From positions 1 through 14,608 of the forward strand of contig CAZSKP010000064.1 in assembly GCA_964607485.1 (NCBI GenBank): a stretch of 14,608 nucleotides of DNA, in the 5' to 3' direction. Shown piece after piece: positions 67 to 14,515 of the stretch; the stretch's first letter is position 1, and each line of letters starts with the position of its first letter. Below the pieces are notes generated by a model that was not told where the DNA came from, did no database searches, and saw only the letters and a program-made list of their open reading frames with translations. The DNA comes from an uncultured bacterium (lineage in GTDB: Bacteria; Abyssobacteria; SURF-5). The translations under genes were made by a program, and so were the position numbers.

Positions 67-957
67 CTATCGGCCTCTGCCGACGTGCCTCTTCCTCTCC
101 CGGTCCGATTCGGCCTCTTTCCTCAGTGACTTCAATATTTCATTGTATATCCTGAAATGCGCCTGGTCCAGAATCCACTTCGCTCCGAAAAGGAGTCCCA
201 GGGCAGTGAATTGTATGAAGTAGCGATGGGTGAAGAACGAAACGCCGATTGTTATGAGGGCGGCCGCGAGCCAGACGTGCGCGCGAATGATTTCCCCGAT
301 GCTCCTGCGCCGGGCAAATAGGAACCCCAGGCTCTTTCTTGGCGGCGCGATCACCGCGCCGCAGGTCGGGCAGAACCGGCTGGCCGCAGGAATCGGCTGA
401 CGGCAGGATATGCACAGGAGCGCGACGGTCGCCGGCTTGAGCTGAGCGCCGCAGCTCGAGCATGTGGACGCTTCGCGCGCATTCTCCTCATGGCACAGCG
501 GGCATCTCACGTGCGCAGGGGGAAGAGTGGATTTTATGAGGCGGAGCGTTTTTTCTCGCGTATCGCTGTCGGGTTCTGCAAAACCCTCTTCCTCTTGTTT
601 TTCCAGCGCCCTACGAATCTGGATAAGGTTGTCCCGACACGCAGGGCAGTCGGCAAGGTGCTCCTCGGCTCCCGTACGCTGCTCGGGTGAGAGCAAGTCT
701 TCGAGGTAGTTCGCCAGCACTATCGGTGGCAAGCAGCCTGAAGCCGTGCCTCCCGGGGGAGCGGCCTTGGAGTCGAGCGCGACGAGGCTGCTCCGCACGA
801 GAGAATCGAAGCGCTTGAACGACTCAACCTTTTTCGCGCAGCGAGGACAAGACCGGATGTGCTCCGCGAGTTTGCCCTGGCGCAACTCATCCGACTGTGC
901 GCTTGCGTATTCGCTCAGGTCTTTTAATGATGGATGGCGTCGCAGCACTTTTCTCAC
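67..957 (-). CDS. Putative zinc-binding anti-sigma factor: tandem zf-HC2 (ZAS) domains, double zinc ribbon and C-terminal transmembrane hairpin
   Basis: 296-aa ORF directly downstream of an ECF sigma gene. Two HxxxCxxC motifs (HIRSCPRC, HLADCPAC); two CxxC-x10-CxxCG ribbons (CPLC..CSSCG, CISC..CPTCG); two hydrophobic segments (VWLAAALITIGVSFF, YFIQFTALGLLFGAKWIL). GGGAGG lies upstream; the start could be GTG 957 or GTG 948. Confidence 0.8.
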   Translation of the reverse strand: MRKVLRRHPSLKDLSEYASAQSDELRQGKLAEHIRSCPRCAKKVESFKRFDSLVRSSLVALDSKAAPPGGTASGCLPPIVLANYLEDLLSPEQRTGAEEHLADCPACRDNLIQIRRALEKQEEEGFAEPDSDTREKTLRLIKSTLPPAHVRCPLCHEENAREASTCSSCGAQLKPATVALLCISCRQPIPAASRFCPTCGAVIAPPRKSLGFLFARRRSIGEIIRAHVWLAAALITIGVSFFTHRYFIQFTALGLLFGAKWILDQAHFRIYNEILKSLRKEAESDRERKRHVGRGR

Positions 958-988: not shown

Positions 989-1606
989 TCATGCGATTCC
1001 CACCTTGTTCAGACGCCTGAAGAGCTTTCTCTTTATTCGGAACAGCCTGGTCGAAACCGTATTTATTGGAATGTTCGCGACGTTGGCTATTTCCTTGTAT
1101 TTCAGGCTATCAACATAATACCATTTTAGCAGGAGTTGTTCATCGGGACGGAGTTGCTTCACGGCGTCCGACACCCGCTCCATCGTCTCCGAGTCACTCG
1201 ATTCGGAAGGAGAATATGAGGCTCTCTGTTCCGCCACACGGGAATGAGCGGCGGCGGAATGCGAGTTGCGGCCCTTCTTCCGAACGAAGTCGATCGCCTT
1301 GTGTAGGGCGACTGCGCAGAGCCACGACTCTATCCTGTCGCGATTTTTGATCGAAGCGAGCGCCCGGCAGTCGTTCTCCACGAGGTCCTTGAAAACCTCC
1401 TGGAAGATGTCGTCGGCATCGGCCTTTGCGTCGGCCAGCCCGAGCGAGGCCAATTTTCGGACCACCGTACCGTAAATCAGAGGACCATATCGGCGGAGGA
1501 ATTCGTCCCACGCATCTTGTTCGTACTGTGTGCATTTCTCCACGAGGGAACTGGCAGGCAGGGATGCCAATTGAGAATGGGAGTCCTTGTGAGTGGCTGA
1601 AGACAA
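989..1606 (-). CDS. RNA polymerase sigma-70 factor, ECF subfamily
   Basis: 205 aa with region 2 (AWDEFLRRYGPLIY...DADDIFQEVF...WLCAVALHKAIDFVRKK) and a region 4 HTH (LRPDEQLLLKWYYVDSLKYKEIANVANIPINTVSTRLFRIKRKL). TTG start is approximate. Confidence 0.93.
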   Translation of the reverse strand: MSSATHKDSHSQLASLPASSLVEKCTQYEQDAWDEFLRRYGPLIYGTVVRKLASLGLADAKADADDIFQEVFKDLVENDCRALASIKNRDRIESWLCAVALHKAIDFVRKKGRNSHSAAAHSRVAEQRASYSPSESSDSETMERVSDAVKQLRPDEQLLLKWYYVDSLKYKEIANVANIPINTVSTRLFRIKRKLFRRLNKVGIA

Positions 1607-1913: not shown

Positions 1914-1942
1914 TTGACATTATCCACGAAAAATGCTATAAG
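1914..1942 (+). promoter_or_regulatory. sigma70-type promoter for the sfrB-sfrA-nuoJKLMN-atp unit
   Basis: TTGACA (1914-1919), a 17-nt spacer, then TATAAG (1937-1942) with a TGn extended -10 (TG at 1934-1935). Predicted TSS about 1949. Confidence 0.8.
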
Positions 1943-2098
1943 GTAATGCTGTGACTTTTGGGGATGCGCCGCCGCTTGCGACATCACCGAAGCCGGCCTT
2001 TCCCAAAAGAATACCCCCACCTCCTCGTACCGGCACAGATGCCGTGCAGTCGCCCCATATGTTGCACGGCAGTTAGAGTATTAGGAGATACAATCACA

Positions 2099-4057
2099 TT
2101 GGCGGAAATATTCTTCGACAGTTGGTTTGTGGAACCCTGCGGCAAACTCGTCGGCGAGCAGACGCTTGCCTCCGTCCCGGAAGCCCATAAGAAATTCTTT
2201 CTGGGCACGAAGTGTCCCGCCGACTTGAAAGCGGTCGTCGGATGGGGAGGCTTGGTGCTTCTGAGCGAAGAGGTATGCCCCGTGCAGCTTATGGTGAGCT
2301 TCTTCGAGCAGGTCCAGGCCAAATCCTGCGGCAAGTGCTTTCCCTGCCGTGTGGGCTCGCGGGTCGTATACGACCTCCTATGCCGCATAGCAGCCGGCGA
2401 AGGGGAGGCCCGTGATATCGAAAAGCTGAAGCCGCTTGTGACCGACATACGAAGCGCGGCACTGTGCGGCTTCGGGATAGCGATGGAAAAACCGCTCGTC
2501 GATGCGCTGGAGAATTTCAGAGCCGAATTCGAGGCCCATCTGAACGGGAAGAAGTGCGACGCGCCCAAGACCGAGTCGATAATGATAGCTCCCTGCAACG
2601 TCGGCTGCCCCGCCTCGACCGATGCGGCCCGCTACATCGAGCTCATCAGGGAGCGTAAGTACGTCACCTCGATTGATGTGGCGCGAGCACCCAATCCGTT
2701 TGCCGCAGTGTGCGGGCGCGCCTGTTTCCATCCGTGCGAAACTCTCTGCAAACGCTCGACCGTCGACGAGCCGATTTCGATAGCATACCTCAAACGCGTC
2801 GTCTCGGATTACGAAAAGAAGCTGATAAAACAGAAACAATACCGTTTCGCGCCCCACGTCTCCACGGGCGAGAAGGGCAAGGTCGCCGTCATAGGAACTG
2901 GCCCGGCCGGCGCCACGTGCGCCCGCGAGCTTGCCGCGTGGGATTACGATGTCACGATATTCGAGGCCGCCCCGGTCGTCGGCGGCACCACGCACCTGGG
3001 CATCCCCGCGTATCGTCTGCCGCGCGATATCGTAAACGGCGAGATAGAACAGGTACAGGCTTATGGCGTCAAGGTCAAGACCAACACAGCCCTTGGAAAA
3101 GATTTTTCGATTCAGGACCTGTTCGACCAGGGCTTCAAGGCGGTCTTCCTCGCCATCGGCGCCATGAAGGGCAGAAAGCTCGGCATCCCCGGCGAAGAGG
3201 AAAACGAGGGCATAATGGACGCCATGGATTTTCTGCGGCGCGTCAACCTCGGCGACGAATCGCGCATCGGCAGGAAGGTGATAGTCATCGGGGGCGGCAA
3301 CTCCGCCATCGATGCCGCACGCGTGCCGGCCCACCTCGGTTATGAAGACGTGAACATCGTGTACAGGCGTACCCGCAAGGAGATGCCCGCCAGCCCGTGG
3401 GAGGTCGAGGAGGCCGAACACGAAGGCGTGAAACTGCATTTTCTGGCGGCGCCCACGCGCGTCCTCGGCAAGGACGGCAAGGTCACGGGGCTCGAGTGCA
3501 TTCGGATGGAACTGGGCGAGCCCGACGAGAGCGGACGCCGCAGGCCGGTGCCCATCAAGGGCTCCGAGTTCACGATAGAGGCCGACCTCGTCGTCGCCGC
3601 CGTGAGCCAGGCGCCAGACATGGAATATTTCAAGAAGATCGACGGGTTGGGCGTGACCAAGTGGAGCACGTTCGAGATCGATCCCGATACGATGCAAACG
3701 ACGTTGCCCGGCGTGTTCGCGGGCGGCGACGCCGCCACCGGCCCCCAGTCGGTCATCATGGCGGTCCAGACCGGGCTGCAGGCGGCCGTCTCGATAGACA
3801 AGTACCTGAGCGGCGGAAAACACGAAGAGTTTGACACGCTGATGCGGATGCGCAAGATCGTCCAAGCGCTCGGGCCGGTCGAGGATTCGGAGCACTGCGC
3901 GGGAGTGAGCGGCCTGGAACGGGCGAAGATGCCCGCCATTCCGCCCAAGGAGCGCATCGGCAATTTCAACGAGGTCGAGCTGGGCTTCAGCGAGCAGACC
4001 GCCGTCGCCGAGGCCGAGCGCTGCATGAGGTGTTATAGGATTATCATGACCGCCTGA
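2099..4057 (+). CDS. sfrB: SfrB-like NADPH-dependent FAD/Fe-S oxidoreductase (NuoF-type 4Fe-4S domain fused to a GltD/NfnL-like domain)
   Basis: Start re-assigned to TTG 2099 (AGGAGA at 2083-2088), giving MAEIFFDSW..., 652 aa. NuoF N3 motif SCGKCFPC...LCGFG; GltD-type APCNVGCP and CGRACFHPCETLC; FAD GxGxxG (GTGPAG); NADPH-type GGGNSA followed by YRRT; MELGEPDESGRRRPVP; GVFAGGD; C-terminal EAERCMRC. Architecture and the N-terminal F-x-S-W and GWxG motifs match my recollection of Geobacter SfrB. Confidence 0.82.
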   Translation: MAEIFFDSWFVEPCGKLVGEQTLASVPEAHKKFFLGTKCPADLKAVVGWGGLVLLSEEVCPVQLMVSFFEQVQAKSCGKCFPCRVGSRVVYDLLCRIAAGEGEARDIEKLKPLVTDIRSAALCGFGIAMEKPLVDALENFRAEFEAHLNGKKCDAPKTESIMIAPCNVGCPASTDAARYIELIRERKYVTSIDVARAPNPFAAVCGRACFHPCETLCKRSTVDEPISIAYLKRVVSDYEKKLIKQKQYRFAPHVSTGEKGKVAVIGTGPAGATCARELAAWDYDVTIFEAAPVVGGTTHLGIPAYRLPRDIVNGEIEQVQAYGVKVKTNTALGKDFSIQDLFDQGFKAVFLAIGAMKGRKLGIPGEEENEGIMDAMDFLRRVNLGDESRIGRKVIVIGGGNSAIDAARVPAHLGYEDVNIVYRRTRKEMPASPWEVEEAEHEGVKLHFLAAPTRVLGKDGKVTGLECIRMELGEPDESGRRRPVPIKGSEFTIEADLVVAAVSQAPDMEYFKKIDGLGVTKWSTFEIDPDTMQTTLPGVFAGGDAATGPQSVIMAVQTGLQAAVSIDKYLSGGKHEEFDTLMRMRKIVQALGPVEDSEHCAGVSGLERAKMPAIPPKERIGNFNEVELGFSEQTAVAEAERCMRCYRIIMTA

Positions 4058-4092
4058 TGAGGCGGTCACTTTGTGAGGCAAAGAAGTTCCCG

Positions 4093-6663
4093 ATGGTCAA
4101 CCTGACGATAGACGAAAAGAGCGTGAGCGTTCCCAAAGGCACGACGATTCTCGCGGCCGCCGCCTCGGTCGGGATCGAAATCCCGACCCTCTGCTATCAT
4201 CCCAAGCTGTCTCCTATAGGTGCCTGCAGGGTGTGTCTTGTGGAAGTAGAGGGCGAAAGCAGGCCGGTGGCCTCATGCGACACTCCGGTGCGTGAAGGCA
4301 TGGTCGTGCGCACGAACACCGACGAGATTGCGCGTCAGCGAAAGCAGATGCTGCAGTTCGTGCTCCTGCACCATCCCCTCGATTGTCCCGTCTGCGACAA
4401 GGCGGGCGAGTGCGAGGTGCAAGATATCACCGTGGACATGTGCATACTGGAACAGCCCTTCCGGTCGGCCAAGCCTGAGAAGGCGAAGGAAGAGCTTTCA
4501 CCCGTCGTCGACCTGTGGCACACGCGCTGCATCATGTGCGGGCGCTGTGTGCAGATCTGCAAGGAGGTCCAGGGCGCGCGTGCGGTCGACTATGTTGTCC
4601 GGAGCGGCTTTGTCTCGAAGGTGGGCCCGACCGAGCATGGCGGCTATCCGTGCGAGAGCTGCACGCAGTGCCTTTCCGTGTGCCCCGTGGGCGCGATACT
4701 CGACTCGACGTTCCGCTACAGCGCGCGCGCATGGCAGCTCACGAAGGTAGATTCGATATGCACGTTTTGCGGCGTCGGGTGTTCGTATGAGCTGAACGTT
4801 CGCGAGAATAAAGTTTACAGGGTTACTGTCCGCGATTTTCAAGGATACAACAGGGGCAATCTTTGCTCCGTCGGCAGGTTCGGCAGAGACGTGGCCCACA
4901 GCGAATCGCGCCTGACGAGCCCGGCAGTCCGTAAGAACGGCGGCCTGCTGAACGTGGGTTGGGACGAAGCTCTCGACTATGCGGCCGACAGGCTGAAGGA
5001 GATAGTTGCCGCGCAGGATGGCAACAGCGTCGCCGGGCTGGCATCGGCTCGATGCTCGAACGAGGCGCTCTTCGCGTTCCAGCGACTGATGCGCGAAGGG
5101 CTGGGGACCAACCGCCTCGACATGCCCACTCATCTGAACAATCTCGCGCTCATAGAGACCATGACCGACGTGTACGGCGTGCCCGCCCCCACCGCAACCC
5201 TATCGGACATCGACGAAGCCGACGCCGTGCTCGTCGTCGATTCGAACATCATCTGCACTCATCCGGTCGCCGCGCTGGAGGTTTTGCGCGTTCATAACGC
5301 GGGCTCCGCGAACGTATTCGTCGTCGGTCACCGTTCGAATAAGCTCAGCACACAGTGCGTCCAGTTTGCCAGAACCATGCCCGGGTCGGAAACGGCTCTT
5401 TTGAACTGTCTGGCGAACCTTCTGGTCGAAAAGGGCGTCCTGGACGACGATGCGCTCGCGCATCGCGCCGATGGCTACGACAAGCTGAAGCTGCACCTGG
5501 TGAGATACTCACTCACCGAAACGGCCGTCCGAACCGGAGTCGATCCCTCGGTCATCTCGGAGATTGCCGAAGGGATCGCGAGAGCGAAGAACTTCCTGCT
5601 GGTCCTCTCGCCGGGAAGTCTGCATTCCGCCGTGAACTCCTCGATTGCCCGCGCCGCCGTGAACCTCGCCGTGCTGAAGGGCGGCAAGGTGCTCTCGCTG
5701 GTGCGCGAAGGCAACGCTCAGGGCGCTCTCGACATGGGAATTTCACCCGATTTTCTTCCGGGCTACAAAGAGGCCGCCGGGACGGGCAACGGTCCTCTCG
5801 GCGTCTTTGACGTCCTGCGGGGCGTGGAATCGGGCGAGATAAAGGCACTTTACCTCATGGGGGGCGACATCCGGCGGGAGATGGCCCTGCTCGGCCTGCC
5901 TCTGGAGACGCTCCAGTCGCTCGAACTGCTCGTTGTGCAAGATGTCTTCGGCGGGCCGGTGAGCGAGATGGCGCATGTGGTCCTACCCGCGTGCAGCTTT
6001 GCCGAACGCGACGGCTCCTACACGAGCGCCTATCGTATCCCCCAGCACAGTGCGCGCGCCATAAGACCCATCGGACAGTGTCGGCCCGACCTCGAGATCC
6101 TCTCCGACCTCGGACACAGATTGGGCCTGGCGGCGCTGGATTCGGCGGAGGCCGTCAGAGACCAGATTGCTTCGTCGGTTCCCATATACGGATTCATGGC
6201 GGGCTCGCGCGGGCTGCAGGGAGTCGGCGCATGGGACTACTCGGAGGTCGCCTCAGGCGCAAGGCATAAGCTCTCCGCGGTGACGGAAAGCCGGTCGGAG
6301 ACTGATGGGGCATATCCTTACGTTCTGACTTTTGACAACATGCTGCACTTCGGCGGCGCGACCTCTATTCATTCGCCCAGCCTGGCAAAGATCAGGGCGG
6401 ATGGGGTGGTCGAACTCAGCGAGGACGATGGAAGAGCTTTGGGAGTGAAGGACGGAACGATCGTGGAGTTGAAGGTAAAGGGGGCCGGTTCCGCAGCGTT
6501 GCCCGTACGAATCAGCAGGGAACTGCCGCAGGGTGTCGTCAGCGTCCCCGCGCATGATTTTGAGGTTATTCAGAAACTGATATCGAAGCTGGACGCCTCG
6601 ACCTTCAGGGCGGAACAGGGCGCGCCCGTGTGGTTTGCCGGCATCGTCGCGGCAAAGGATTGA
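4093..6663 (+). CDS. sfrA: SfrA/NuoG-like multi-Fe-S protein of the molybdopterin oxidoreductase fold, lacking the catalytic metal ligand
   Basis: Likely start ATG 4093 (MVNLTIDEKSV), 856 aa. 2Fe-2S motif IPTLC..GACRVC..C; HPLDCPVCDKAGEC; CIMCGRCVQIC and CESCTQCLSVCP; CTFCGVGC..GNLC; later motifs VVLPACSFAERDGSYT and a molybdopterin-dinucleotide-like C-terminal domain. NRLDMPTHLNN replaces the FDH 'NNxDxCARxC/U-H' site. Confidence 0.82.
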   Translation: MVNLTIDEKSVSVPKGTTILAAAASVGIEIPTLCYHPKLSPIGACRVCLVEVEGESRPVASCDTPVREGMVVRTNTDEIARQRKQMLQFVLLHHPLDCPVCDKAGECEVQDITVDMCILEQPFRSAKPEKAKEELSPVVDLWHTRCIMCGRCVQICKEVQGARAVDYVVRSGFVSKVGPTEHGGYPCESCTQCLSVCPVGAILDSTFRYSARAWQLTKVDSICTFCGVGCSYELNVRENKVYRVTVRDFQGYNRGNLCSVGRFGRDVAHSESRLTSPAVRKNGGLLNVGWDEALDYAADRLKEIVAAQDGNSVAGLASARCSNEALFAFQRLMREGLGTNRLDMPTHLNNLALIETMTDVYGVPAPTATLSDIDEADAVLVVDSNIICTHPVAALEVLRVHNAGSANVFVVGHRSNKLSTQCVQFARTMPGSETALLNCLANLLVEKGVLDDDALAHRADGYDKLKLHLVRYSLTETAVRTGVDPSVISEIAEGIARAKNFLLVLSPGSLHSAVNSSIARAAVNLAVLKGGKVLSLVREGNAQGALDMGISPDFLPGYKEAAGTGNGPLGVFDVLRGVESGEIKALYLMGGDIRREMALLGLPLETLQSLELLVVQDVFGGPVSEMAHVVLPACSFAERDGSYTSAYRIPQHSARAIRPIGQCRPDLEILSDLGHRLGLAALDSAEAVRDQIASSVPIYGFMAGSRGLQGVGAWDYSEVASGARHKLSAVTESRSETDGAYPYVLTFDNMLHFGGATSIHSPSLAKIRADGVVELSEDDGRALGVKDGTIVELKVKGAGSAALPVRISRELPQGVVSVPAHDFEVIQKLISKLDASTFRAEQGAPVWFAGIVAAKD

Positions 6664-6667
6664 GAGC

Positions 6668-7213
6668 ATGGTGTTGTCGTTTTACATATTGGGAGCGGCG
6701 ATGCTGTTCTCCTCGTTGATGGTTGTGACCCGCCGTAACCCGATGCACTCGGCTCTGTGGCTGCTGGTGACCTTCCTGAGTCTTGCGGGCATATACCTTC
6801 TGCTCAACGCGGAGTTTGTGGCCGCAGTACAGGTAATCATATACGCCGGCGGAGTGCTCGTGCTGTACATTTTTGTTATGATGCTCGTGGACCTGTCGAA
6901 AGAGGCCGCATTGCGGGCCGCGTTCAGCAAGCCGAGGCAGCTTCTGTTCGCCATCGTGTTCGCGGGCCTGCTGCTGGCCGTCGTTCTGTGGGTCAGCATC
7001 CAGGGCATCGTGCCCTTCACGATCGAAGAGACGGCGAGCGTGACGGCAGCGGCCGACACGACGCGCGCCTTTGCAAGGGAACTATTCCTTACGTATCTGT
7101 ATCCTTTCGAGATTGCATCGGTATTGTTGCTGGTGGCGATGATAGGTTCCGTCGTCCTGGCGCGCCGGGGGGTGACGCCCCCGAAATCCTCGGAGGAGAG
7201 AGAGACCGGATGA
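6668..7213 (+). CDS. nuoJ: NADH-quinone oxidoreductase subunit J
   Basis: ATG 4 bp after the upstream stop; motifs RRNPMHSALWL, LNAEFVAAVQVIIYAGGVLVLYIFVMML, YLYPFEIASVLLLVAMIGSVVLAR. Confidence 0.95.
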   Translation: MVLSFYILGAAMLFSSLMVVTRRNPMHSALWLLVTFLSLAGIYLLLNAEFVAAVQVIIYAGGVLVLYIFVMMLVDLSKEAALRAAFSKPRQLLFAIVFAGLLLAVVLWVSIQGIVPFTIEETASVTAAADTTRAFARELFLTYLYPFEIASVLLLVAMIGSVVLARRGVTPPKSSEERETG

Positions 7214-7512
7214 TTCCGCTTACCCATTCCATGGCGCTCGGGGCAGCCCTGTTCTGCATTGGGATGCTCGGCTTCCTCATCAGGCGCAACATCATAGTGA
7301 TTTTCATGTCGATAGAGCTGATGCTCAATGCGGTCAATTTGAATCTTGTTGCTTTTTCCAATCAGTTCCATTCCGCTCACGGACAGGTGTTTGCCGTTTT
7401 CGTGATAACGGTGGCCGCGGCCGAGGCCGCTACCGGCCTGGCCATACTCATTGCGCTTTACAGAATCAGTCGCGCGGTCAATGCCGATGAGGCAAGCGCG
7501 TTGAAATGGTAA
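7210..7512 (+). CDS. nuoK: NADH-quinone oxidoreductase subunit K
   Basis: 100 aa, ATGA overlap with the nuoJ stop; RRNIIVIFMSIELMLNAVNLNLVAF and GQVFAVFVITVAAAEAATGLAI with both conserved glutamates. It is the 3' part of track ORF 6757..7512. Confidence 0.96.
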   Translation: MIPLTHSMALGAALFCIGMLGFLIRRNIIVIFMSIELMLNAVNLNLVAFSNQFHSAHGQVFAVFVITVAAAEAATGLAILIALYRISRAVNADEASALKW

Positions 7513-7536
7513 TTCCTAAGCGATAGAGCCCGAACG

Positions 7537-9681
7537 ATGGTGCAAGTACTCGACTATATCTGGCTGATTCCGTTGTTCCCCGCCGTCGGATTTGCCACGA
7601 TAGGACTGCTGGGCAGGAAGTTCTTCAAGGGCAAGACGGAGATAGTCCCCTCCGTTATCGGCTGCACGTCCGTTTTTCTTTCGTTCGCGTTGTCTTTGCT
7701 GTGTGTGCTCGCCCTTCGACATGTCGCGCCCAACGAAGACGGGGTGCGCGTGTTCACGCGCGAGGTCTTCACGTGGATAGACGTCGGCGCCTTCAAGGTC
7801 CCGTTCAAGCTCCAGCTCGACGCGCTGTCGTCGGTCATGATCCTCGTGGTCTCGGGCGTCGGCTTCCTGATCCACGTGTATTCGCACGGCTACATCCACG
7901 GAGATGAGGGCCAGTACAGGTTCTTCTCGTACATGAACCTGTTCACGTGCGCGATGCTCATCCTCGTTCTGGGCGGCAACTTTCTCTTGATGTTCATCGG
8001 ATGGGAGGGAGTGGGCCTGTGCTCGTACCTGCTCATCGGATTCTGGTTCGAGAAGGATTCGGCGGCTAACGCGGGCAAGAAGGCTTTCGTCGTCAACCGG
8101 GTCGGCGACTTCGGGTTCGCCATAGGGATGATGTTTATCTTCTCCGTGTTCGGCACGCTTGACTATCAGACGGTGTTCGCCGATGCACCCGAAAAGCTCG
8201 TTTTCGGCGGCGCCACCGTAACAGCTATCACAATGCTCCTTTTCGTCGGCGCGATGGGTAAGTCGGCTCAGATTCCGCTGTACGTGTGGCTGCCCGACGC
8301 GATGGAGGGCCCGACCCCCACCAGCGCGCTCATTCACGCCGCCACGATGGTCACTTCGGGTGTTTACATGGTATCGCGCTGCAACGTGCTTTACACGATG
8401 GCGCCCGCCAGTCTGCTCCTCGTCGGGGGTGTAGGAGCCGCCACGGCGTTTTTCTCCGCGACCATCGCCATGGCGCAGTACGACATCAAGAAAGTTCTGG
8501 CATATTCCACCGTCAGCCAGCTCGGGTACATGTTCCTCGCGTGCGGTGTGGCGGCATATGCGACCGGCATATTCCATCTCATGACACACGCCTTCTTCAA
8601 GGCGCTCCTGTTCCTTGGGGCCGGCAGTGTGATTCACGGGATGAGTGGCGACCAGGACATGCGCAACATGGGCGGGCTGTCCAAGTATATGAAGCATACG
8701 ACGTGGACGTTCTTGTTCGCCTTCCTTGCCATCTCGGGAATTCCGCCGTTCGCGGGCTTCTTCAGCAAGGACGAGATACTGGAGAAGGCGTTCGTGTACA
8801 GCTCGCCGGTGCTCGGACCGATGTGGGGCAAGCTCCTTTGGGCGGTGGGCTCCGCCGCCGCCTTCATGACCGCGTTCTACATGTCACGCCTTGTGTTTAT
8901 GACTTTCTTCGGCGAGTCCCGCGTATCGGACGAGGCCAAACACCATCTGCATGAATCTCCCCGCTCGATGACGTATCCGCTCATGGCCCTTGCCATCCTG
9001 TCGCTCGTCGGCGGATGGGCCGGCATTCCGGCTTCGCTCGGCGGTTCTCACCATTTTCGCGCTTTTCTAGAGCCGGTGGTCGAAAGGGGAGGGGGTGGCC
9101 ACGGAGCAAGTCATGCCGTGTCGGCTGTCCACCATGAAGCTGAAACGCTCGTCACCGAAGAGGAACTGGCTGTCGAAGACGTGGAGATAGGCGCCGAGCA
9201 TGCTGAGGCGCATTCGCGGTGGATGGAGATTCTCATGATGGCGGTATCGGTCCTGATCGGAGCTCTGGGAATCTCCCTTGGGTACTATATGTACATCAAG
9301 AATACGAATATCCCGCTTCTGGTTCAATTCAAGCTGCCCCGGCTCCACAGGACTCTTCTGAATAAATGGTACGTCGATGAGGTTTACAACTTCACTATTG
9401 TGGGCGGGACCAAGCAGTTCGCAAACCTGCTCTGTTGGTTCGACGCTCACATAATTGACGGTATCGTCAACGGGACCGCATTCATGGCGCGGGCGCTGAG
9501 CAGTGGCAGCATCCTTTTCGACGGTGGGATAATAGACGGCATCGTGAACCTCGTGGGCAGAATCATCGAGGTTGGCAGCGGCGTGCTCAAGCGGCTTCAG
9601 ACCGGATATGTTCAGAATTACGCGCTCGTGATGGCGATCGGAATATTTGTGCTCTTGAGCATTTACATACTTCTGAGGTGA
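7537..9681 (+). CDS. nuoL: NADH-quinone oxidoreductase subunit L, with His/acidic loop and extended lateral helix
   Basis: 714 aa; FIGWEGVGLCSYLLIGFW, KAFVVNRVGDFG, GKSAQIPLYVWLPDAMEGPTPTSALIHAATMV, DIKKVLAYSTVSQLGYM, FHLMTHAFFKALLFLGAGSVIH, C-terminal LQTGYVQNY. Confidence 0.97.
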   Translation: MVQVLDYIWLIPLFPAVGFATIGLLGRKFFKGKTEIVPSVIGCTSVFLSFALSLLCVLALRHVAPNEDGVRVFTREVFTWIDVGAFKVPFKLQLDALSSVMILVVSGVGFLIHVYSHGYIHGDEGQYRFFSYMNLFTCAMLILVLGGNFLLMFIGWEGVGLCSYLLIGFWFEKDSAANAGKKAFVVNRVGDFGFAIGMMFIFSVFGTLDYQTVFADAPEKLVFGGATVTAITMLLFVGAMGKSAQIPLYVWLPDAMEGPTPTSALIHAATMVTSGVYMVSRCNVLYTMAPASLLLVGGVGAATAFFSATIAMAQYDIKKVLAYSTVSQLGYMFLACGVAAYATGIFHLMTHAFFKALLFLGAGSVIHGMSGDQDMRNMGGLSKYMKHTTWTFLFAFLAISGIPPFAGFFSKDEILEKAFVYSSPVLGPMWGKLLWAVGSAAAFMTAFYMSRLVFMTFFGESRVSDEAKHHLHESPRSMTYPLMALAILSLVGGWAGIPASLGGSHHFRAFLEPVVERGGGGHGASHAVSAVHHEAETLVTEEELAVEDVEIGAEHAEAHSRWMEILMMAVSVLIGALGISLGYYMYIKNTNIPLLVQFKLPRLHRTLLNKWYVDEVYNFTIVGGTKQFANLLCWFDAHIIDGIVNGTAFMARALSSGSILFDGGIIDGIVNLVGRIIEVGSGVLKRLQTGYVQNYALVMAIGIFVLLSIYILLR
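9439..9594 (+). repeat. Degenerate 78-bp (26-aa) tandem duplication inside nuoL
   Basis: FDAHIIDGIVN... at 9439 and FDGGIIDGIVN... at 9517, exactly 78 bp apart; DNA ttcgacgctcacataattgacggtatcgtcaac versus ttcgacggtgggataatagacggcatcgtgaac. Confidence 0.88.
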
Positions 9682-9744
9682 ACGAAGGATGAGGGGACTG
9701 GTCGCATCGATCACGGAACCTTCCAGAGAAGGGAGAGTTGAGCG

Positions 9745-11559
<1,815 letters not shown>

Positions 11560-11568
11560 CGGAGTGGA

Positions 11569-13077
11569 ATGATGCAACTCCCGGCTATCGATTTTACATC
11601 TGTCTATCCCGAGGTGACCATTGCGTTGGTCGGGCTGCTCGTTCTGTCGGTTGACATATTCATCAAGCCGAAGCGCAAGACGTCGCTCGCCGTGATCGCT
11701 CTGGCAGGGTTGTTCCTGGCGATGCTGACCACGATGGCCATATGGGACAGAAACGAGACCAGCTTCAGCGGGATGGTCGCCGTGGATCCCTATGCTCAGT
11801 TCTTCAAGCTGATATTCATCCTGTCGGCCGCCTTCACCGTGCTCATGTCCCCTCGATACCTCGAGCTCTATAACATCAGCGTGGGCGAATTTTACGAATT
11901 GATACTGTTCTGCACGTTGGGAATGATGGTGATGGTGGCCGCAAACGACTTCGTCACCATCTACATCGGGCTCGAACTCATGGCCATCTCGATATACCTC
12001 ATGGCCGGATTCCAGAGGGAGAGCCCGCGCTCGTGCGAGGCGTCGATGAAATATTTTCTGCTGGGCGCCTTTGCCTCGGCGTTACTGCTCTACGGGATGT
12101 CTTTCTTCTACGGGATCACGGGCACGACCAATCTTCATGGCATCGCCCGGTACCTCGATTTCACGCAGAACATGCTCAACTCCAGGCTGATAACTCTCTC
12201 GCTGGTGCTGATGACCGTGGGATTCGCGTTCAAGATCGCCGCAGTGCCGTTTCACATGTGGACTCCCGACGTGTACGAAGGGGCGCCGACGCCGTTGACC
12301 GCGTTCATGTCGGTCGGCCCCAAGGTGGCCGCATTCGCCGTCATCATGCGCGTCTATATGACCGCCTTCGACACACTCGTTCCCGACTGGACGCAGCTGT
12401 TCTGGATGCTCTCGGTGCTTACGATGATCGTCGGCAACGTCGTCGCCGTCGCTCAGCAGAACATAAAGCGAATGCTCGCCTATTCGAGCATCGCGCATGC
12501 CGGTTACCTGCTCATAGGGATCGTGTCGGCCGGTTCGGCCACCGCGGTAACCAACAACGACGCCCTCGCCGCCTCGCTCACCTCCGAATCGATGATGAGC
12601 GTGATGGTGTACCTGTTCGCTTACATGTTCATGAACCTGGGGGCCTTTGCCGTCGTCATAGCGCTGGGGAAGGCCGGCGACCCGTGCGAGTCGCTCCAGG
12701 ATTACGCGGGCTTGGCCAAGCGCAGGCCGTTGACGGCGATGTTGATGGCGATACTCCTGTTCTCGCTCGCCGGCATACCGCCGACCTTTGGGTTTGTGGG
12801 CAAACTGTACATATTCAAGGCGGCGATACTGACCGACCACGTGCCGCTCGCCGTAATAGGCGTGCTCGCCAGCGTTGTGGCCGCCTATTATTACGTCCGG
12901 GTCATCGTGTACATGTACATGCGCGAGCCCGAGGGCGAGGCGCTGGTCGAGGGCGACGCGACCGGCTCGACCATGTACGCGGTCATAGCCAGCTCGATTT
13001 TCACACTCCTGTTCGGGATCGCTCCCGGCACGATAATCGGAATGGCTCGGTACACGATACAGCAAATGCTGTCATAG
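11569..13077 (+). CDS. nuoN: NADH-quinone oxidoreductase subunit N
   Basis: 502 aa (start 11569 or 11572, GGAG at 11561); GLELMAISIYLMAG, EASMKYFLLGA, FKIAAVPFHMWTPDVYEGAPTP, NIKRMLAYSSIAHAGY, SLAGIPPTFGFVGK, AYYYVRVI. Confidence 0.96.
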   Translation: MMQLPAIDFTSVYPEVTIALVGLLVLSVDIFIKPKRKTSLAVIALAGLFLAMLTTMAIWDRNETSFSGMVAVDPYAQFFKLIFILSAAFTVLMSPRYLELYNISVGEFYELILFCTLGMMVMVAANDFVTIYIGLELMAISIYLMAGFQRESPRSCEASMKYFLLGAFASALLLYGMSFFYGITGTTNLHGIARYLDFTQNMLNSRLITLSLVLMTVGFAFKIAAVPFHMWTPDVYEGAPTPLTAFMSVGPKVAAFAVIMRVYMTAFDTLVPDWTQLFWMLSVLTMIVGNVVAVAQQNIKRMLAYSSIAHAGYLLIGIVSAGSATAVTNNDALAASLTSESMMSVMVYLFAYMFMNLGAFAVVIALGKAGDPCESLQDYAGLAKRRPLTAMLMAILLFSLAGIPPTFGFVGKLYIFKAAILTDHVPLAVIGVLASVVAAYYYVRVIVYMYMREPEGEALVEGDATGSTMYAVIASSIFTLLFGIAPGTIIGMARYTIQQMLS

Positions 13078-13164: not shown

Positions 13165-13455
13165 GTGGCGTACCCCCGACGGACGAAACAGGTAGGCAGC
13201 TTCTCCAAGTTCTATTCGCTGGCCGTCGAGATGGCCATCGCCGTGATCGTTCCGATACTCATCGGACGATGGCTGGACGCGCGGACGGGCAAGGAGCCGT
13301 GGTTCACCATCATCGGCATGATTCTCGGAGGCGCAGCGGCCATTCGGTCGGCATACAGGACGCTCTCCGAGACGCTCGAGAGCGCGAAGAAGGACGAGGG
13401 CTCACCAGAGGAGAGCCCCGGCGAGGATTCTGAAACGGAAGAGTCGCAGAAGTGA
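13165..13455 (+). CDS. atpZ: AtpZ/AtpI-family (ATPase gene 1) small membrane protein
   Basis: 96 aa with two TM segments and the G-x-W-L-D..G..PWF motif (IGRWLDARTGKEPWFTIIGMILG), in the expected position upstream of atpB. Confidence 0.85.
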   Translation: MAYPRRTKQVGSFSKFYSLAVEMAIAVIVPILIGRWLDARTGKEPWFTIIGMILGGAAAIRSAYRTLSETLESAKKDEGSPEESPGEDSETEESQK

Positions 13456-13772
13456 TCACAATACCCACGATAGTCGGCGTGACGGTCGGCGTCATCATCG
13501 GCGCGATGGATTTTTCGCTGGCAAAGGCCGTGGCGTCCATGATTCGGCCCTCCAACGCCCGCGCCGCTCAGGCCGTCATAATGGCGGGATTCATGTTTCG
13601 GCTCGGCGTCATAGGGGTTCTGCTCTGGACGCTCTCGCGTGCGAACAACGTGAACTTCCTGGCGGCGTGCATCGGGCTGACCGGCACGTTCACCGTCCTC
13701 ACACTGGGGCACGCCCTCAGGTCGATTGCCGGCGTCGGTCGGGAACAGAAGCAAGTGTCCGATAGGAGGTAG
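13452..13772 (+). CDS. atpI: ATP synthase protein I-like membrane protein
   Basis: 106-aa hydrophobic ORF with a GTGA overlap with atpZ, an Arg in FMFRLGVI as is typical of this family, and located immediately before atpB. Assignment rests mostly on position. Confidence 0.7.
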   Translation: MITIPTIVGVTVGVIIGAMDFSLAKAVASMIRPSNARAAQAVIMAGFMFRLGVIGVLLWTLSRANNVNFLAACIGLTGTFTVLTLGHALRSIAGVGREQKQVSDRR

Positions 13773-13777
13773 TGACT

Positions 13778-14515
13778 TTGGAAATCAAGCACGAACATCT
13801 TCGCAATCTCACCGAGTGGGGGATATTCTCCATCAATAAGGCGGTCATATGGATGTTCATCGCCGGCTTTGTCGTCTTCCTCGTGATCTATCTGGCCGGT
13901 AAGAGATCCATGGTGCCGAAAAGATACCAGGGGTTCATGGAACTGATTCTGACACTCATCCGCGAAAAAATGGTGCTCGACACCATGGGGCATGAAGGGC
14001 TGCCCTTCTTTCCGTTCATTGCATCTCTGTTCTTCTTCGTATTCTTCTGCAATATAGTGGGCATATTCCCCCTGGGTCACTACGGGTTCACGGCCACGTC
14101 GAACATAAACGTGACGGGCTCCCTCACCGTACTGGTCTTTGCCGTCGTCGTAGTGACGGGTCTTCGGAAGAAAGGGATTGGAGGATACATCAAGAGCTTC
14201 GCACCCCACGGAGTGCCCGTCTGGCTGCTTCCGCTGATCTTCCCCGTCGAGGTAATCAGCCTTTTCGCCAAACATTTCGCCCTGGCCGTTCGTCTTTTTG
14301 CGAACATGCTTGCGGGCCACACCGTGATACTCGTGTTCGCCACCATGACGGCCGCGCTCCTGGGGGCCGGGCTGTGGGTCGTGCTCTTTCCGCTTCCTTT
14401 CGTCGGGGTCGTGTTAATGCTCATATTCGAGATATTCGTTGCTCTGATTCAGGCGTTCATCTTTGCGATACTCGCTGCGCTGTATATCGGCGATTCGCTT
14501 CGGGAACATCACTAA
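13778..14515 (+). CDS. atpB: F0F1 ATP synthase subunit a
   Basis: PKRYQGFME, FFPFIASLFFFVFFCN, TATSNINVT, PVEVIS...LAVRLFANMLAGH (essential Arg), FEIFVALIQAFIF. AGGAGG at 13764-13769 is best spaced for TTG 13778; GTG 13772 is the alternative. Confidence 0.96.
   Translation: MEIKHEHLRNLTEWGIFSINKAVIWMFIAGFVVFLVIYLAGKRSMVPKRYQGFMELILTLIREKMVLDTMGHEGLPFFPFIASLFFFVFFCNIVGIFPLGHYGFTATSNINVTGSLTVLVFAVVVVTGLRKKGIGGYIKSFAPHGVPVWLLPLIFPVEVISLFAKHFALAVRLFANMLAGHTVILVFATMTAALLGAGLWVVLFPLPFVGVVLMLIFEIFVALIQAFIFAILAALYIGDSLREHH

Follow-up and report, generated by a model that had tools for sequence, protein, structure and literature searches.

The stretch of DNA analysed here (the window) is the entire contig CAZSKP010000064.1 (hereafter C64; 14,608 bases) of the draft genome GCA_964607485.1 (93 contigs, 4.70 Mb, 97.5% complete) from an uncultured bacterium of the SURF-5 lineage. 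It carries an operon in which the genes for an SfrB-type NAD(P)H flavoprotein and for a NuoG-type iron-sulfur (Fe-S) subunit, hereafter NuoG2, are directly followed by nuoJ, nuoK, nuoL, nuoM and nuoN, which encode the pumping arm of respiratory complex I. From this gene order and the following lines of evidence, we regard it as probable that the window holds half of a complex I encoded at two loci, in which NuoE and NuoF are replaced by an SfrB/GltD-type flavoprotein, and which would operate as a reversible NADP(H):quinone oxidoreductase with NADPH oxidation as its main direction. The physical assembly of this enzyme, its NADPH specificity and its direction are what we infer from the genomic data.

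All genes of the operon lie on the plus strand. The flavoprotein gene (2099..4057) occupies an open frame spanning 1958-4057 and likely starts at the TTG codon at 2099 (652 amino acids), because this codon is preceded by AGGAG (2083-2087) and the alignment of the orthologues begins at residue 47-48 of the long frame. It is followed by nuoG2 (4057..6663; 868 amino acids from the ATG at 4057, or 856 from the ATG at 4093), nuoJ (6668..7213; PF00499, E 1.8e-40), nuoK (7210..7512; PF00420, E 9.5e-27), nuoL (7537..9681; 736 bits for the NuoL family NF005141, above its cut-off of 556, with PF00361 and PF00662), nuoM (9745..11559; TIGR01972, 629 bits, above cut-off) and nuoN (11569..13077; TIGR01770, 472 bits, above cut-off). 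Successive genes, from the flavoprotein gene through nuoN, are spaced by −1, 4, −4, 24, 63 and 9 nt, such that sfrB, G, J, K and L are linked by stop/start overlaps or gaps of at most 24 nt. The nuoG2/nuoJ joint reads TGA-gagc-ATG, with AAGGA located 8 nt ahead of the ATG, within the end of nuoG2, and nuoK starts with a 4-nt overlap with the stop of nuoJ. A terminator scan revealed no plus-strand terminator-like site between the genes from 2099 to 13077. No RNA run was listed as containing the stretch 3500-8500. Upstream of them, a putative, near-consensus sigma-70-like promoter (1914..1942, plus strand) could be read directly in the sequence, with TTGACA at 1914-1919, a spacer of 17 nt and the extended −10 element TGcTATAAG at 1934-1942; it is absent from the list of the automatic promoter scan because the last base of its −10 hexamer is a G. 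The contig carries none of the genes nuoA to nuoF, nuoH and nuoI. An earlier note on this DNA, made from the sequence alone, had described a promoter followed by sfrB-like and G-type genes, nuoJ 4 bp further on and then K to N, without nuoABCDEHI, and every particular of this description was confirmed by the gene calls and the Pfam and NCBIfam searches. The results also support its view that an input module is joined here to the pumping arm.

This gene order is real and not an assembly artefact, because it recurs in ten other genomes and because two other contigs bridge the joint at 6663-6668, the place for which the earlier note had considered an assembly break. The first one (run X1, possibly from the source sample) covers 3500-6845 with zero differences, and the second one (X5), from another study, covers 6202-7643 and is about 94% alike. 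The survey of the sfrB-G-nuoJ synteny that the note had called for showed the same order in the five close relatives (5/5) from a scan of species genomes, and in 10/10 related genomes from a genome search.

The other half of the enzyme was sought in an inventory of the whole genome. Family searches matched NuoH at three places (contigs C10, C68 and C3) and the NuoD family at three places (C10, C9 and C3), while tblastn located NuoA, B, C, D, H, J and K at three places each and seven antiporter-like genes, of which C64 and C68 hold three each and C10 a single one. The end of C9 (nuoA-B-CD-E) and the start of C68 (nuoF-G-H-I-J-K-L-M-N) are one ordinary nuo cluster split by a contig break, and C10 carries another cluster (see below). 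C3 carries nuoA-B-C-D-H-I and nothing further that is nuo-like; its NuoI has both CxxCxxCxxxCP motifs, and its NuoB has the tandem-cysteine motif of cluster N2. Hence, the eleven core complex I genes are all present across two loci, A, B, C, D, H and I on C3 and J, K, L, M and N on C64. As the sets of C10 and of C9+C68 are each linked in cis, which leaves these two, we propose that the C3 genes and the window operon encode the partner halves of one complex I, which would assemble physically. This pairing fits with the sequence identities, as the subunits encoded by C3 and C64 resemble those of C10 (identities of 47% for A, 52% for B, 46% for D, 53% for H, 57% for K and 46% for N) more than those of C9/C68. 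The quinone module was thus found elsewhere in the genome, as had been anticipated; that it would be exchangeable is speculation. The bolder idea that JKLMN couples to a different partner, such as a group 4 hydrogenase, was rejected: the genome has just three places with NuoD/HycE-type and three with NuoH-type genes, all of them nuo clusters. Two open reading frames that follow nuoI on C3 (304 and 150 amino acids) matched no Pfam family and nothing in the loci of relatives, and were not counted as parts of the enzyme. Directly upstream of the C3 nuoA gene lies a response-regulator/HD-GYP-type gene (Response_reg and HD_5 domains; locus L007, 14001-15074, minus strand).

The flavoprotein comprises three Pfam domains, PF10589 (the C-terminal domain of NuoF that binds the N3 [4Fe-4S] cluster), PF14691 (Fer4_20; GltD/DPD-type, two [4Fe-4S] clusters) and PF07992 (Pyr_redox_2), which binds flavin adenine dinucleotide (FAD) and NAD(P)H. 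PF10589, at residues 112-194 of the long frame, is the sole part of NuoF that was matched; PF01512 (Complex1_51K), the domain of a genuine NuoF that binds flavin mononucleotide (FMN) and NADH, had no match in the Pfam search. The top NCBIfam match was PRK12771, with 464.8 bits for a cut-off of 516. The N3-type domain, the two GltD-type [4Fe-4S] clusters, the FAD site and the NADPH-type site together make up the beta subunit of SfrAB and of the NADP-linked formate dehydrogenases (FDHs). All eight flavoproteins of the window clade share the motifs SCGKCFPCR...CGFG, GxGxxG, GGGNSA and YRR, and with them the cysteines of N3, the two GltD clusters and the motifs for FAD and NADP. In the nucleotide-binding site, GGGNSA (GxGxxA)...VYRR, residues Y422/R423/R424 align without gap with Tyr310/Arg311/Arg312 of the Thermotoga maritima NfnB protein (chain 4ylf_B), and both GGGNSA and the Tyr-Arg-Arg triplet align with the NADPH-binding chains of NfnB, StnA and NfnA. 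These Tyr-Arg-Arg residues are described as the binders of the NADP phosphate in NfnB-type proteins (bioRxiv 10.1101/717884), and GxGxxA is given as a marker of NADP(H) (PMC7483475). The site is therefore predicted to be of the NADP type, in agreement with the NADP-type head module that had been suggested from the sequence.

Paralogous units occur on C4 (~123,000-130,209) and C1 (~49,100-52,500), each with a NuoE-like gene, a NuoF-GltD-type frame of 1058-1061 amino acids and an FDH-type alpha subunit that keeps the Cys-His pair. From their sequences they look like soluble enzymes of the Bfu/NADP-formate-dehydrogenase type, the nearest soluble kin of the head module of the window.

The second gene of the window had been thought to encode an SfrA/NuoG-like protein, within an SfrBA pair replacing NuoEFG altogether. 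Only part of this view stands: NuoE and NuoF are replaced, whereas NuoG is not, since the sequence features of the second gene product place it in the NuoG lineage on the following grounds. First, NuoG2, which matches PF13510, PF10588, PF22117, PF04879, PF00384 and PF01568, has the ligand sites of N1b (four cysteines), N5 (HxxxCxxCxxxxxC), N4 and an N7-type cluster, plus those of one further ferredoxin-type [4Fe-4S] cluster; the N1b, N5 and N4 ligands are all present and invariant in an alignment (A1) of 25 sequences. The extra-cluster motif CxxCxxCxxxCP is complete in NuoG2, giving an 8-Cys ferredoxin-like arrangement, and is missing from the NuoG proteins encoded by C68 and C10 of the same genome. 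Second, its N5 motif, HPLDCPVCDKAGEC, has the form found in operon NuoGs and differs from that of the FDH-type rows. Third, NuoG2 lacks the active-site pair of the alpha subunits of the FDH lineage, the catalytic Cys386/His387 of Rhodobacter FdsA being aligned with Asn361/Asn362; this pair is gone in 8/8 members of the window clade, as well as in the operon NuoGs L030, L057 and that of C68, whereas all FDH/SfrA-type rows, including the C4 paralogue and L020, retain Cys or selenocysteine (Sec) followed by His. For this reason, the possibility that the gene encodes a formate dehydrogenase was rejected. Fourth, a quick IQ-TREE tree of 36 rows placed the window clade with operon NuoGs, on a branch supported by an SH-aLRT (Shimodaira-Hasegawa-like approximate likelihood ratio test) value of 99 that separates them from all FDH/SfrA-type rows, though with a long-branch warning. 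After removal of the three longest rows, the window clade paired with two operon NuoGs in a FastTree tree (local support 0.995), and in a FastTree tree of 55 rows it was still found among the CPxCDKAGEC-type G proteins, with a change of sister. The loss of the Cys/Sec-His pair provides a clean sequence marker separating the electron-wire form of these proteins from the possibly formate-active form.

Both halves of the proposed enzyme are conserved in relatives; close relatives bear the labels Candidatus (Ca.) Abyssobacteria, Poribacteria or Hydrogenedentota in public records. An orthologue of NuoG2 occurs in 9/9 genomes of the same family (69-77% identity) and in the one genome of the same class, G010 (41%), and a C3-type NuoH is encoded on another contig in all ten (81-91% identity; 62% in G010). 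The order flavoprotein-G-J-K(-L-M-N-atpZ-orf-atpB) was observed in 10/10 loci, as far as the contigs reach, and so was, again within contig reach, nuoABCDHI without any nuo gene after it. The ten other genomes all have the 4-nt joint to nuoJ, so that the pair is not the stand-alone two-gene unit known for SfrAB. In G010, which is 96% complete, NuoH had a single match, the three antiporter-like matches all lie inside the sfrB-G-JKLMN operon, the sole hit to Complex1_51K is the RnfC protein of an rnf cluster, and the queries used revealed no NuoF; these queries thus found no complex I other than the split set in this genome. Extra antiporter-like genes of other relatives (e.g., on contig C19 of G005) were considered as spare nuoL or nuoM genes and rejected, as they belong to an mrp operon.

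The same head pair also occurs inside contiguous nuo operons of other lineages. Among 80 metagenome loci collected with the NuoG N5 motif as the seed, seven have a full-length SfrB-type gene immediately before G, and nuo genes adjoin the pair in all seven. Thus, L124 reads nuoA-B-C-D-flavoprotein-G-H-I-J-K (confirmed with Pfam), L128 reads A-B-CD-flavoprotein-G-H-I-J-L, and L193 and L196 have two G genes. Two other arrangements were noticed, nuoM-N-flavoprotein-G with nothing nuo-like after it (L127) and flavoprotein-G-nuoI-nuoJ with no nuoH in between (L120). It seems that the flavoprotein and G genes travel together, as one unit, among nuo genes. The L124 flavoprotein was matched in 78 of 401 sampled species genomes (E <= 1e-120), and of the 30 loci examined from these matches, eight belong to the family of the window and 22 do not. 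Seven of these 22, from three families, have the order nuoC/D-flavoprotein-G, and all five that were extended are contiguous nuoABCD-flavoprotein-G-HIJKL(-M-N) operons without nuoE or nuoF, one of them ending at nuoL by contig end. They provide gene-order evidence that is independent of the lineage of the window, and they bear out the evolutionary link between SfrB/NADP-FDH-type modules and complex I that the earlier note had put forward. As the head pair sits there in the nuoE/F slot, it appears unlikely, to judge from gene order, to be a mere co-transcribed soluble enzyme. The G subunits of L119, L120 and L124 have no active-site pair, as in the window, whereas those of L122, L127, L128 and of the 4/4 alignable genome operons (L229, L230, L232 and L233) have a formate-dehydrogenase-type CARL-Sec(TGA)-His site. 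The Sec-bearing G subunits also carry the NuoG-type N5 motif, and the corresponding operons may encode a complex I with a live formate site.

Taken together, these data suggest the following electron pathway. Because it retains the C-terminal N3 domain of NuoF, the flavoprotein should dock on NuoG2 as NuoF does on NuoG. NADP(H) would exchange a hydride with the FAD of the flavoprotein, from which single electrons would pass through the two GltD-type [4Fe-4S] clusters and the N3-like cluster to the N-terminal domain of NuoG2. The electrons would then be transferred sequentially to the N1b, N4 and N5 clusters of NuoG2, the N6a/b clusters of NuoI, the N2 cluster of NuoB and the quinone, with proton translocation being coupled via NuoH, A, J, K, N, M and L. 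Such an enzyme would be reversible and energy-coupled. The oxidation of NADPH would be the favoured direction in this organism, because G010 possesses Rnf for ferredoxin and, apart from the split set, no complex I.

We also considered that the same enzyme works in the opposite direction, the proton motive force driving electrons from the quinol to NADP+, and perhaps to ferredoxin too, for the supply of biosynthetic reductant rather than for respiration. The 8-Cys ferredoxin-like motif (one extra [4Fe-4S] cluster) and the N7-type site that NuoG2 retains speak for this explanation, as does the ability of GltD/NfnB-type flavins to bifurcate (the PDB relatives being NfnB, StnA and NfnA). Nevertheless, it appears rather unlikely to us, since G010 has an rnf cluster, and no complex I other than the split set for the forward reaction, and since no ferredoxin-binding feature was identified in this analysis. 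Rnf is the usual link between ferredoxin and NAD+. The direction in question has been proposed, as reverse electron transport to ferredoxin, for the NUO-2 complexes of Nitrospina gracilis and Ca. Kuenenia stuttgartiensis by the authors who described them (PMC3578206), and, as a reduction of NAD(P)+ and ferredoxin at the expense of the proton motive force, for Sulfurimonas (bioRxiv 10.1101/717884), but these published cases are chemolithoautotrophs, which need such a reductant.

It is very unlikely that the flavoprotein and NuoG2 constitute a soluble SfrAB-like NADPH oxidoreductase that is merely co-transcribed with the membrane genes, the membrane enzyme then being an 11-subunit complex with another donor, e.g., ferredoxin. 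What speaks for this explanation is that SfrAB of Geobacter and the NADP-linked formate dehydrogenases are described as soluble two-subunit enzymes with the same domain make-up (PMC7483475, PMC9888536), that 11-subunit enzymes with unknown donors are reported to be common, the donor of complex I without NuoE/F being a long-standing open question (PMC11238625, PMC3144371), and that soluble-type paralogues are the nearest, albeit weakly supported, neighbours of the flavoprotein in our tree. However, with the Cys/Sec-His pair lost in the 8/8 clade G proteins, a soluble form would have no substrate site beyond that for NADPH. Furthermore, NuoG2 groups with operon NuoGs, the same pair stands between nuoD and nuoH in other lineages, and the 4-nt joint to nuoJ persists across ten genomes. 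As to a neutral shuffling of operons, in which the C3+C64 complex I would use the NuoE/F of another nuo cluster and the flavoprotein would have an unrelated role, it is scarcely credible: the genome does have two further nuo clusters with nuoE/F, and the sharing of nuoEFG by two isozymes has been suggested for Syntrophobacter (PMC4453560), but G010 retains the split set with no NuoF found, the flavoprotein has the N3 domain, which docks on NuoG-type proteins, and it is kept beside the G gene in every genome looked at.

Several points weigh against the NADP(H):quinone oxidoreductase that we propose. The genome is a draft of 93 contigs with a completeness of 97.5%. The NADPH specificity is a prediction carried by motifs, and the papers on related enzymes favour the reverse direction with reduction of ferredoxin (PMC3578206, bioRxiv 10.1101/717884). 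NuoG2 scored 407.1 bits against the NuoG family TIGR01973, below the cut-off of 470.05, though this was still its best-scoring NCBIfam family, and its relatives bear only the public labels "molybdopterin-dependent oxidoreductase" or "YjgC". In the 55-row tree, the window clade stood beside three G genes that follow nuoE-nuoF and have no nuoH after them, so that its sister differs between the trees. Lastly, in the FastTree tree of the flavoproteins, where the nuo-linked ones from metagenomes cluster together (support 0.92 and 0.89), the window clade is placed apart from other nuo-linked SfrB-type proteins, with weak support (0.22-0.54). The flavoprotein of this clade may represent a separate recruitment, or may simply have diverged far.

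Enzymes of this kind are already in print, as hypotheses and under other names, so that the link between SfrAB-like proteins and complex I, the novelty of which the earlier note had left undecided, is not new; it is the form found here, split over two loci and from a little-known phylum, that is new. In the description of NUO-2 from Nitrospina gracilis, the genes are scattered over the genome, NuoF2 is devoid of the FMN site and possesses N3, further [4Fe-4S] clusters and a domain for nucleotide binding, and NuoG2 has one additional [4Fe-4S] cluster; a similar complex encoded by one operon is reported from Ca. Kuenenia stuttgartiensis, where it was formerly annotated as a formate:quinone oxidoreductase (PMC3578206). 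The window enzyme resembles them, as far as can be judged from the descriptions, in its FMN-less substitute of NuoF with N3, extra [4Fe-4S] clusters and a nucleotide site, and in its NuoG with one extra [4Fe-4S] cluster. The two splits differ, being nuoACHIJKLMN, nuoEGD and the lone nuoB2 and nuoF2 genes in Nitrospina, and nuoABCDHI and flavoprotein-G-JKLMN here, where, unlike in Nitrospina, neither locus has a nuoE. In addition, NuoF2 of Nitrospina is described with a [2Fe-2S] site (PMC3578206), whereas Pfam revealed no such domain in the window flavoprotein.

In Sulfurimonas denitrificans, the protein replacing NuoF, Suden_1824, is described as an NfnB homologue with the NADP-binding residues (bioRxiv 10.1101/717884). 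By this description, the enzymes of Sulfurimonas and Sulfurovum share with that of the window an NfnB/GltD-type flavoprotein with Tyr-Arg-Arg and Fe-S cysteines in the nuoF position beside nuoG. They differ from it in having two NuoG copies and one contiguous cluster, as do L193 and L196, whereas the window, which comes from an unrelated phylum, shows a split operon with a single NuoG-type gene. From the published descriptions and the loci of like order (L193, L196 and L229-L233), the window flavoprotein would be related to NuoF2 and Suden_1824. With SfrAB and the NADP-linked formate dehydrogenases, the window pair shares a GltD-type beta subunit with Fe-S sites, as well as the N-terminal Fe-S domain and the molybdopterin fold of the alpha subunit. 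Unlike the FDH-type alpha subunits with which it was compared (the C4 paralogue, L020 and others), NuoG2 has no Cys/Sec-His pair, and the pair of genes is joined to nuoJ.

Two other kinds of complexes deserve comparison. The 12-subunit complex I of Campylobacter and Helicobacter is reported to keep NuoG, to have NuoE/F replaced and to use a donor other than NADH (PMC3144371, PMC4453560). The window enzyme is similar in that it keeps a NuoG-type subunit while another protein replaces NuoE/F. The Campylobacter and Helicobacter replacements reportedly serve flavodoxin and are not of the GltD type, as Weerakoon and Olson are said to have described in 2008. The mbx-like operons hold a gltD-related flavoprotein gene, the product of which is said to replace NuoI (PMC4758237). 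They have in common with the window a GltD-type NAD(P)-binding flavoprotein encoded in the operon of a complex-I-related membrane complex, but the Mrp/Mbx-type complex there is said to have no NuoG and the flavoprotein in place of NuoI, whereas in the window enzyme NuoI is present (on C3) and the flavoprotein, with its N3 domain, pairs with NuoG. We found no paper that names a protein of the SfrB or GltD type at the position of nuoE/F, though the figures or supplements of PMC4758237 and PMC3144371 may show such operons.

The present findings add a whole phylum-level lineage whose gene order connects a GltD/SfrB-type NADP(H) flavoprotein with NuoG and the pumping arm, as well as a genome (G010) where such a split set is the only complex I found. 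They also establish a link to operons of this type that are contiguous and occur in several other families, in some cases with a selenocysteine FDH-type G subunit. They make up the clearest genomic case so far for a GltD/SfrB-type NADP(H) module as a regular head of complex I. To our knowledge, complex I of this type is known from genomes and has never been purified or biochemically characterised. As no member has been purified, the value of these findings is that of a sharper, testable hypothesis and not of a new principle, and they overturn nothing. If an energy-coupled NADP(H):quinone oxidoreductase does operate as proposed, the redox-balance models of many uncultured anaerobes would need such an enzyme.

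The third nuo cluster of the genome, on C10 (~52,290-64,330; L008, 4293-16334), consists of nuoB-C-D-E, a gene for a thiamine pyrophosphate (TPP) enzyme and nuoA-F-G-H-I-J-K-N, followed by a gene for a tetratricopeptide repeat (TPR) protein; its nuoG is short (569 amino acids). Clusters of this type, which have NADH-type NuoE/F, lack nuoL and nuoM in this genome and in the five relatives examined (L113-L117), and in several genomes of the window family the only nuoL and nuoM are those of the sfrB-G-JKLMN operon. Either the NuoL and NuoM of the window operon complete two complex I enzymes, NADPH-type and NADH-type, with the pumping-arm operon serving as a shared module, or the NADH-type C10 enzyme works with a single antiporter-like subunit, which would be equally unusual. 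We consider the sharing to be unlikely; if true, it would provide a naturally occurring example of modules that can be exchanged.

The remaining features of the window flank the operon. Upstream of it, in the place where nuoA-E might have been expected, lies the divergent gene for an extracytoplasmic function (ECF) sigma factor that the earlier note had recognised (989-1606, minus strand), followed on the same strand by an anti-sigma gene encoding zf-HC2 and double zinc-ribbon domains (67-957, minus strand). The ECF sigma factor was considered as a conserved regulator of the operon and rejected; the sigma/anti-sigma pair is probably unrelated to the nuo genes, because it stands beside the operon in none of the ten related loci (0/10). 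A search of the window against Rfam gave no family match at gathering scores. Downstream, 87 nt past nuoN, the region 13165-14515 (plus strand) carries an AtpZ-like gene (PF09527), a 106-amino-acid open reading frame without family and atpB (F0 subunit a). The terminator scan showed no terminator-like site between nuoN and atpZ, and the related genomes have the same nuoN-atpZ-orf-atpB arrangement wherever their contigs extend far enough; a part of F0 may thus share its regulation with the pumping arm.

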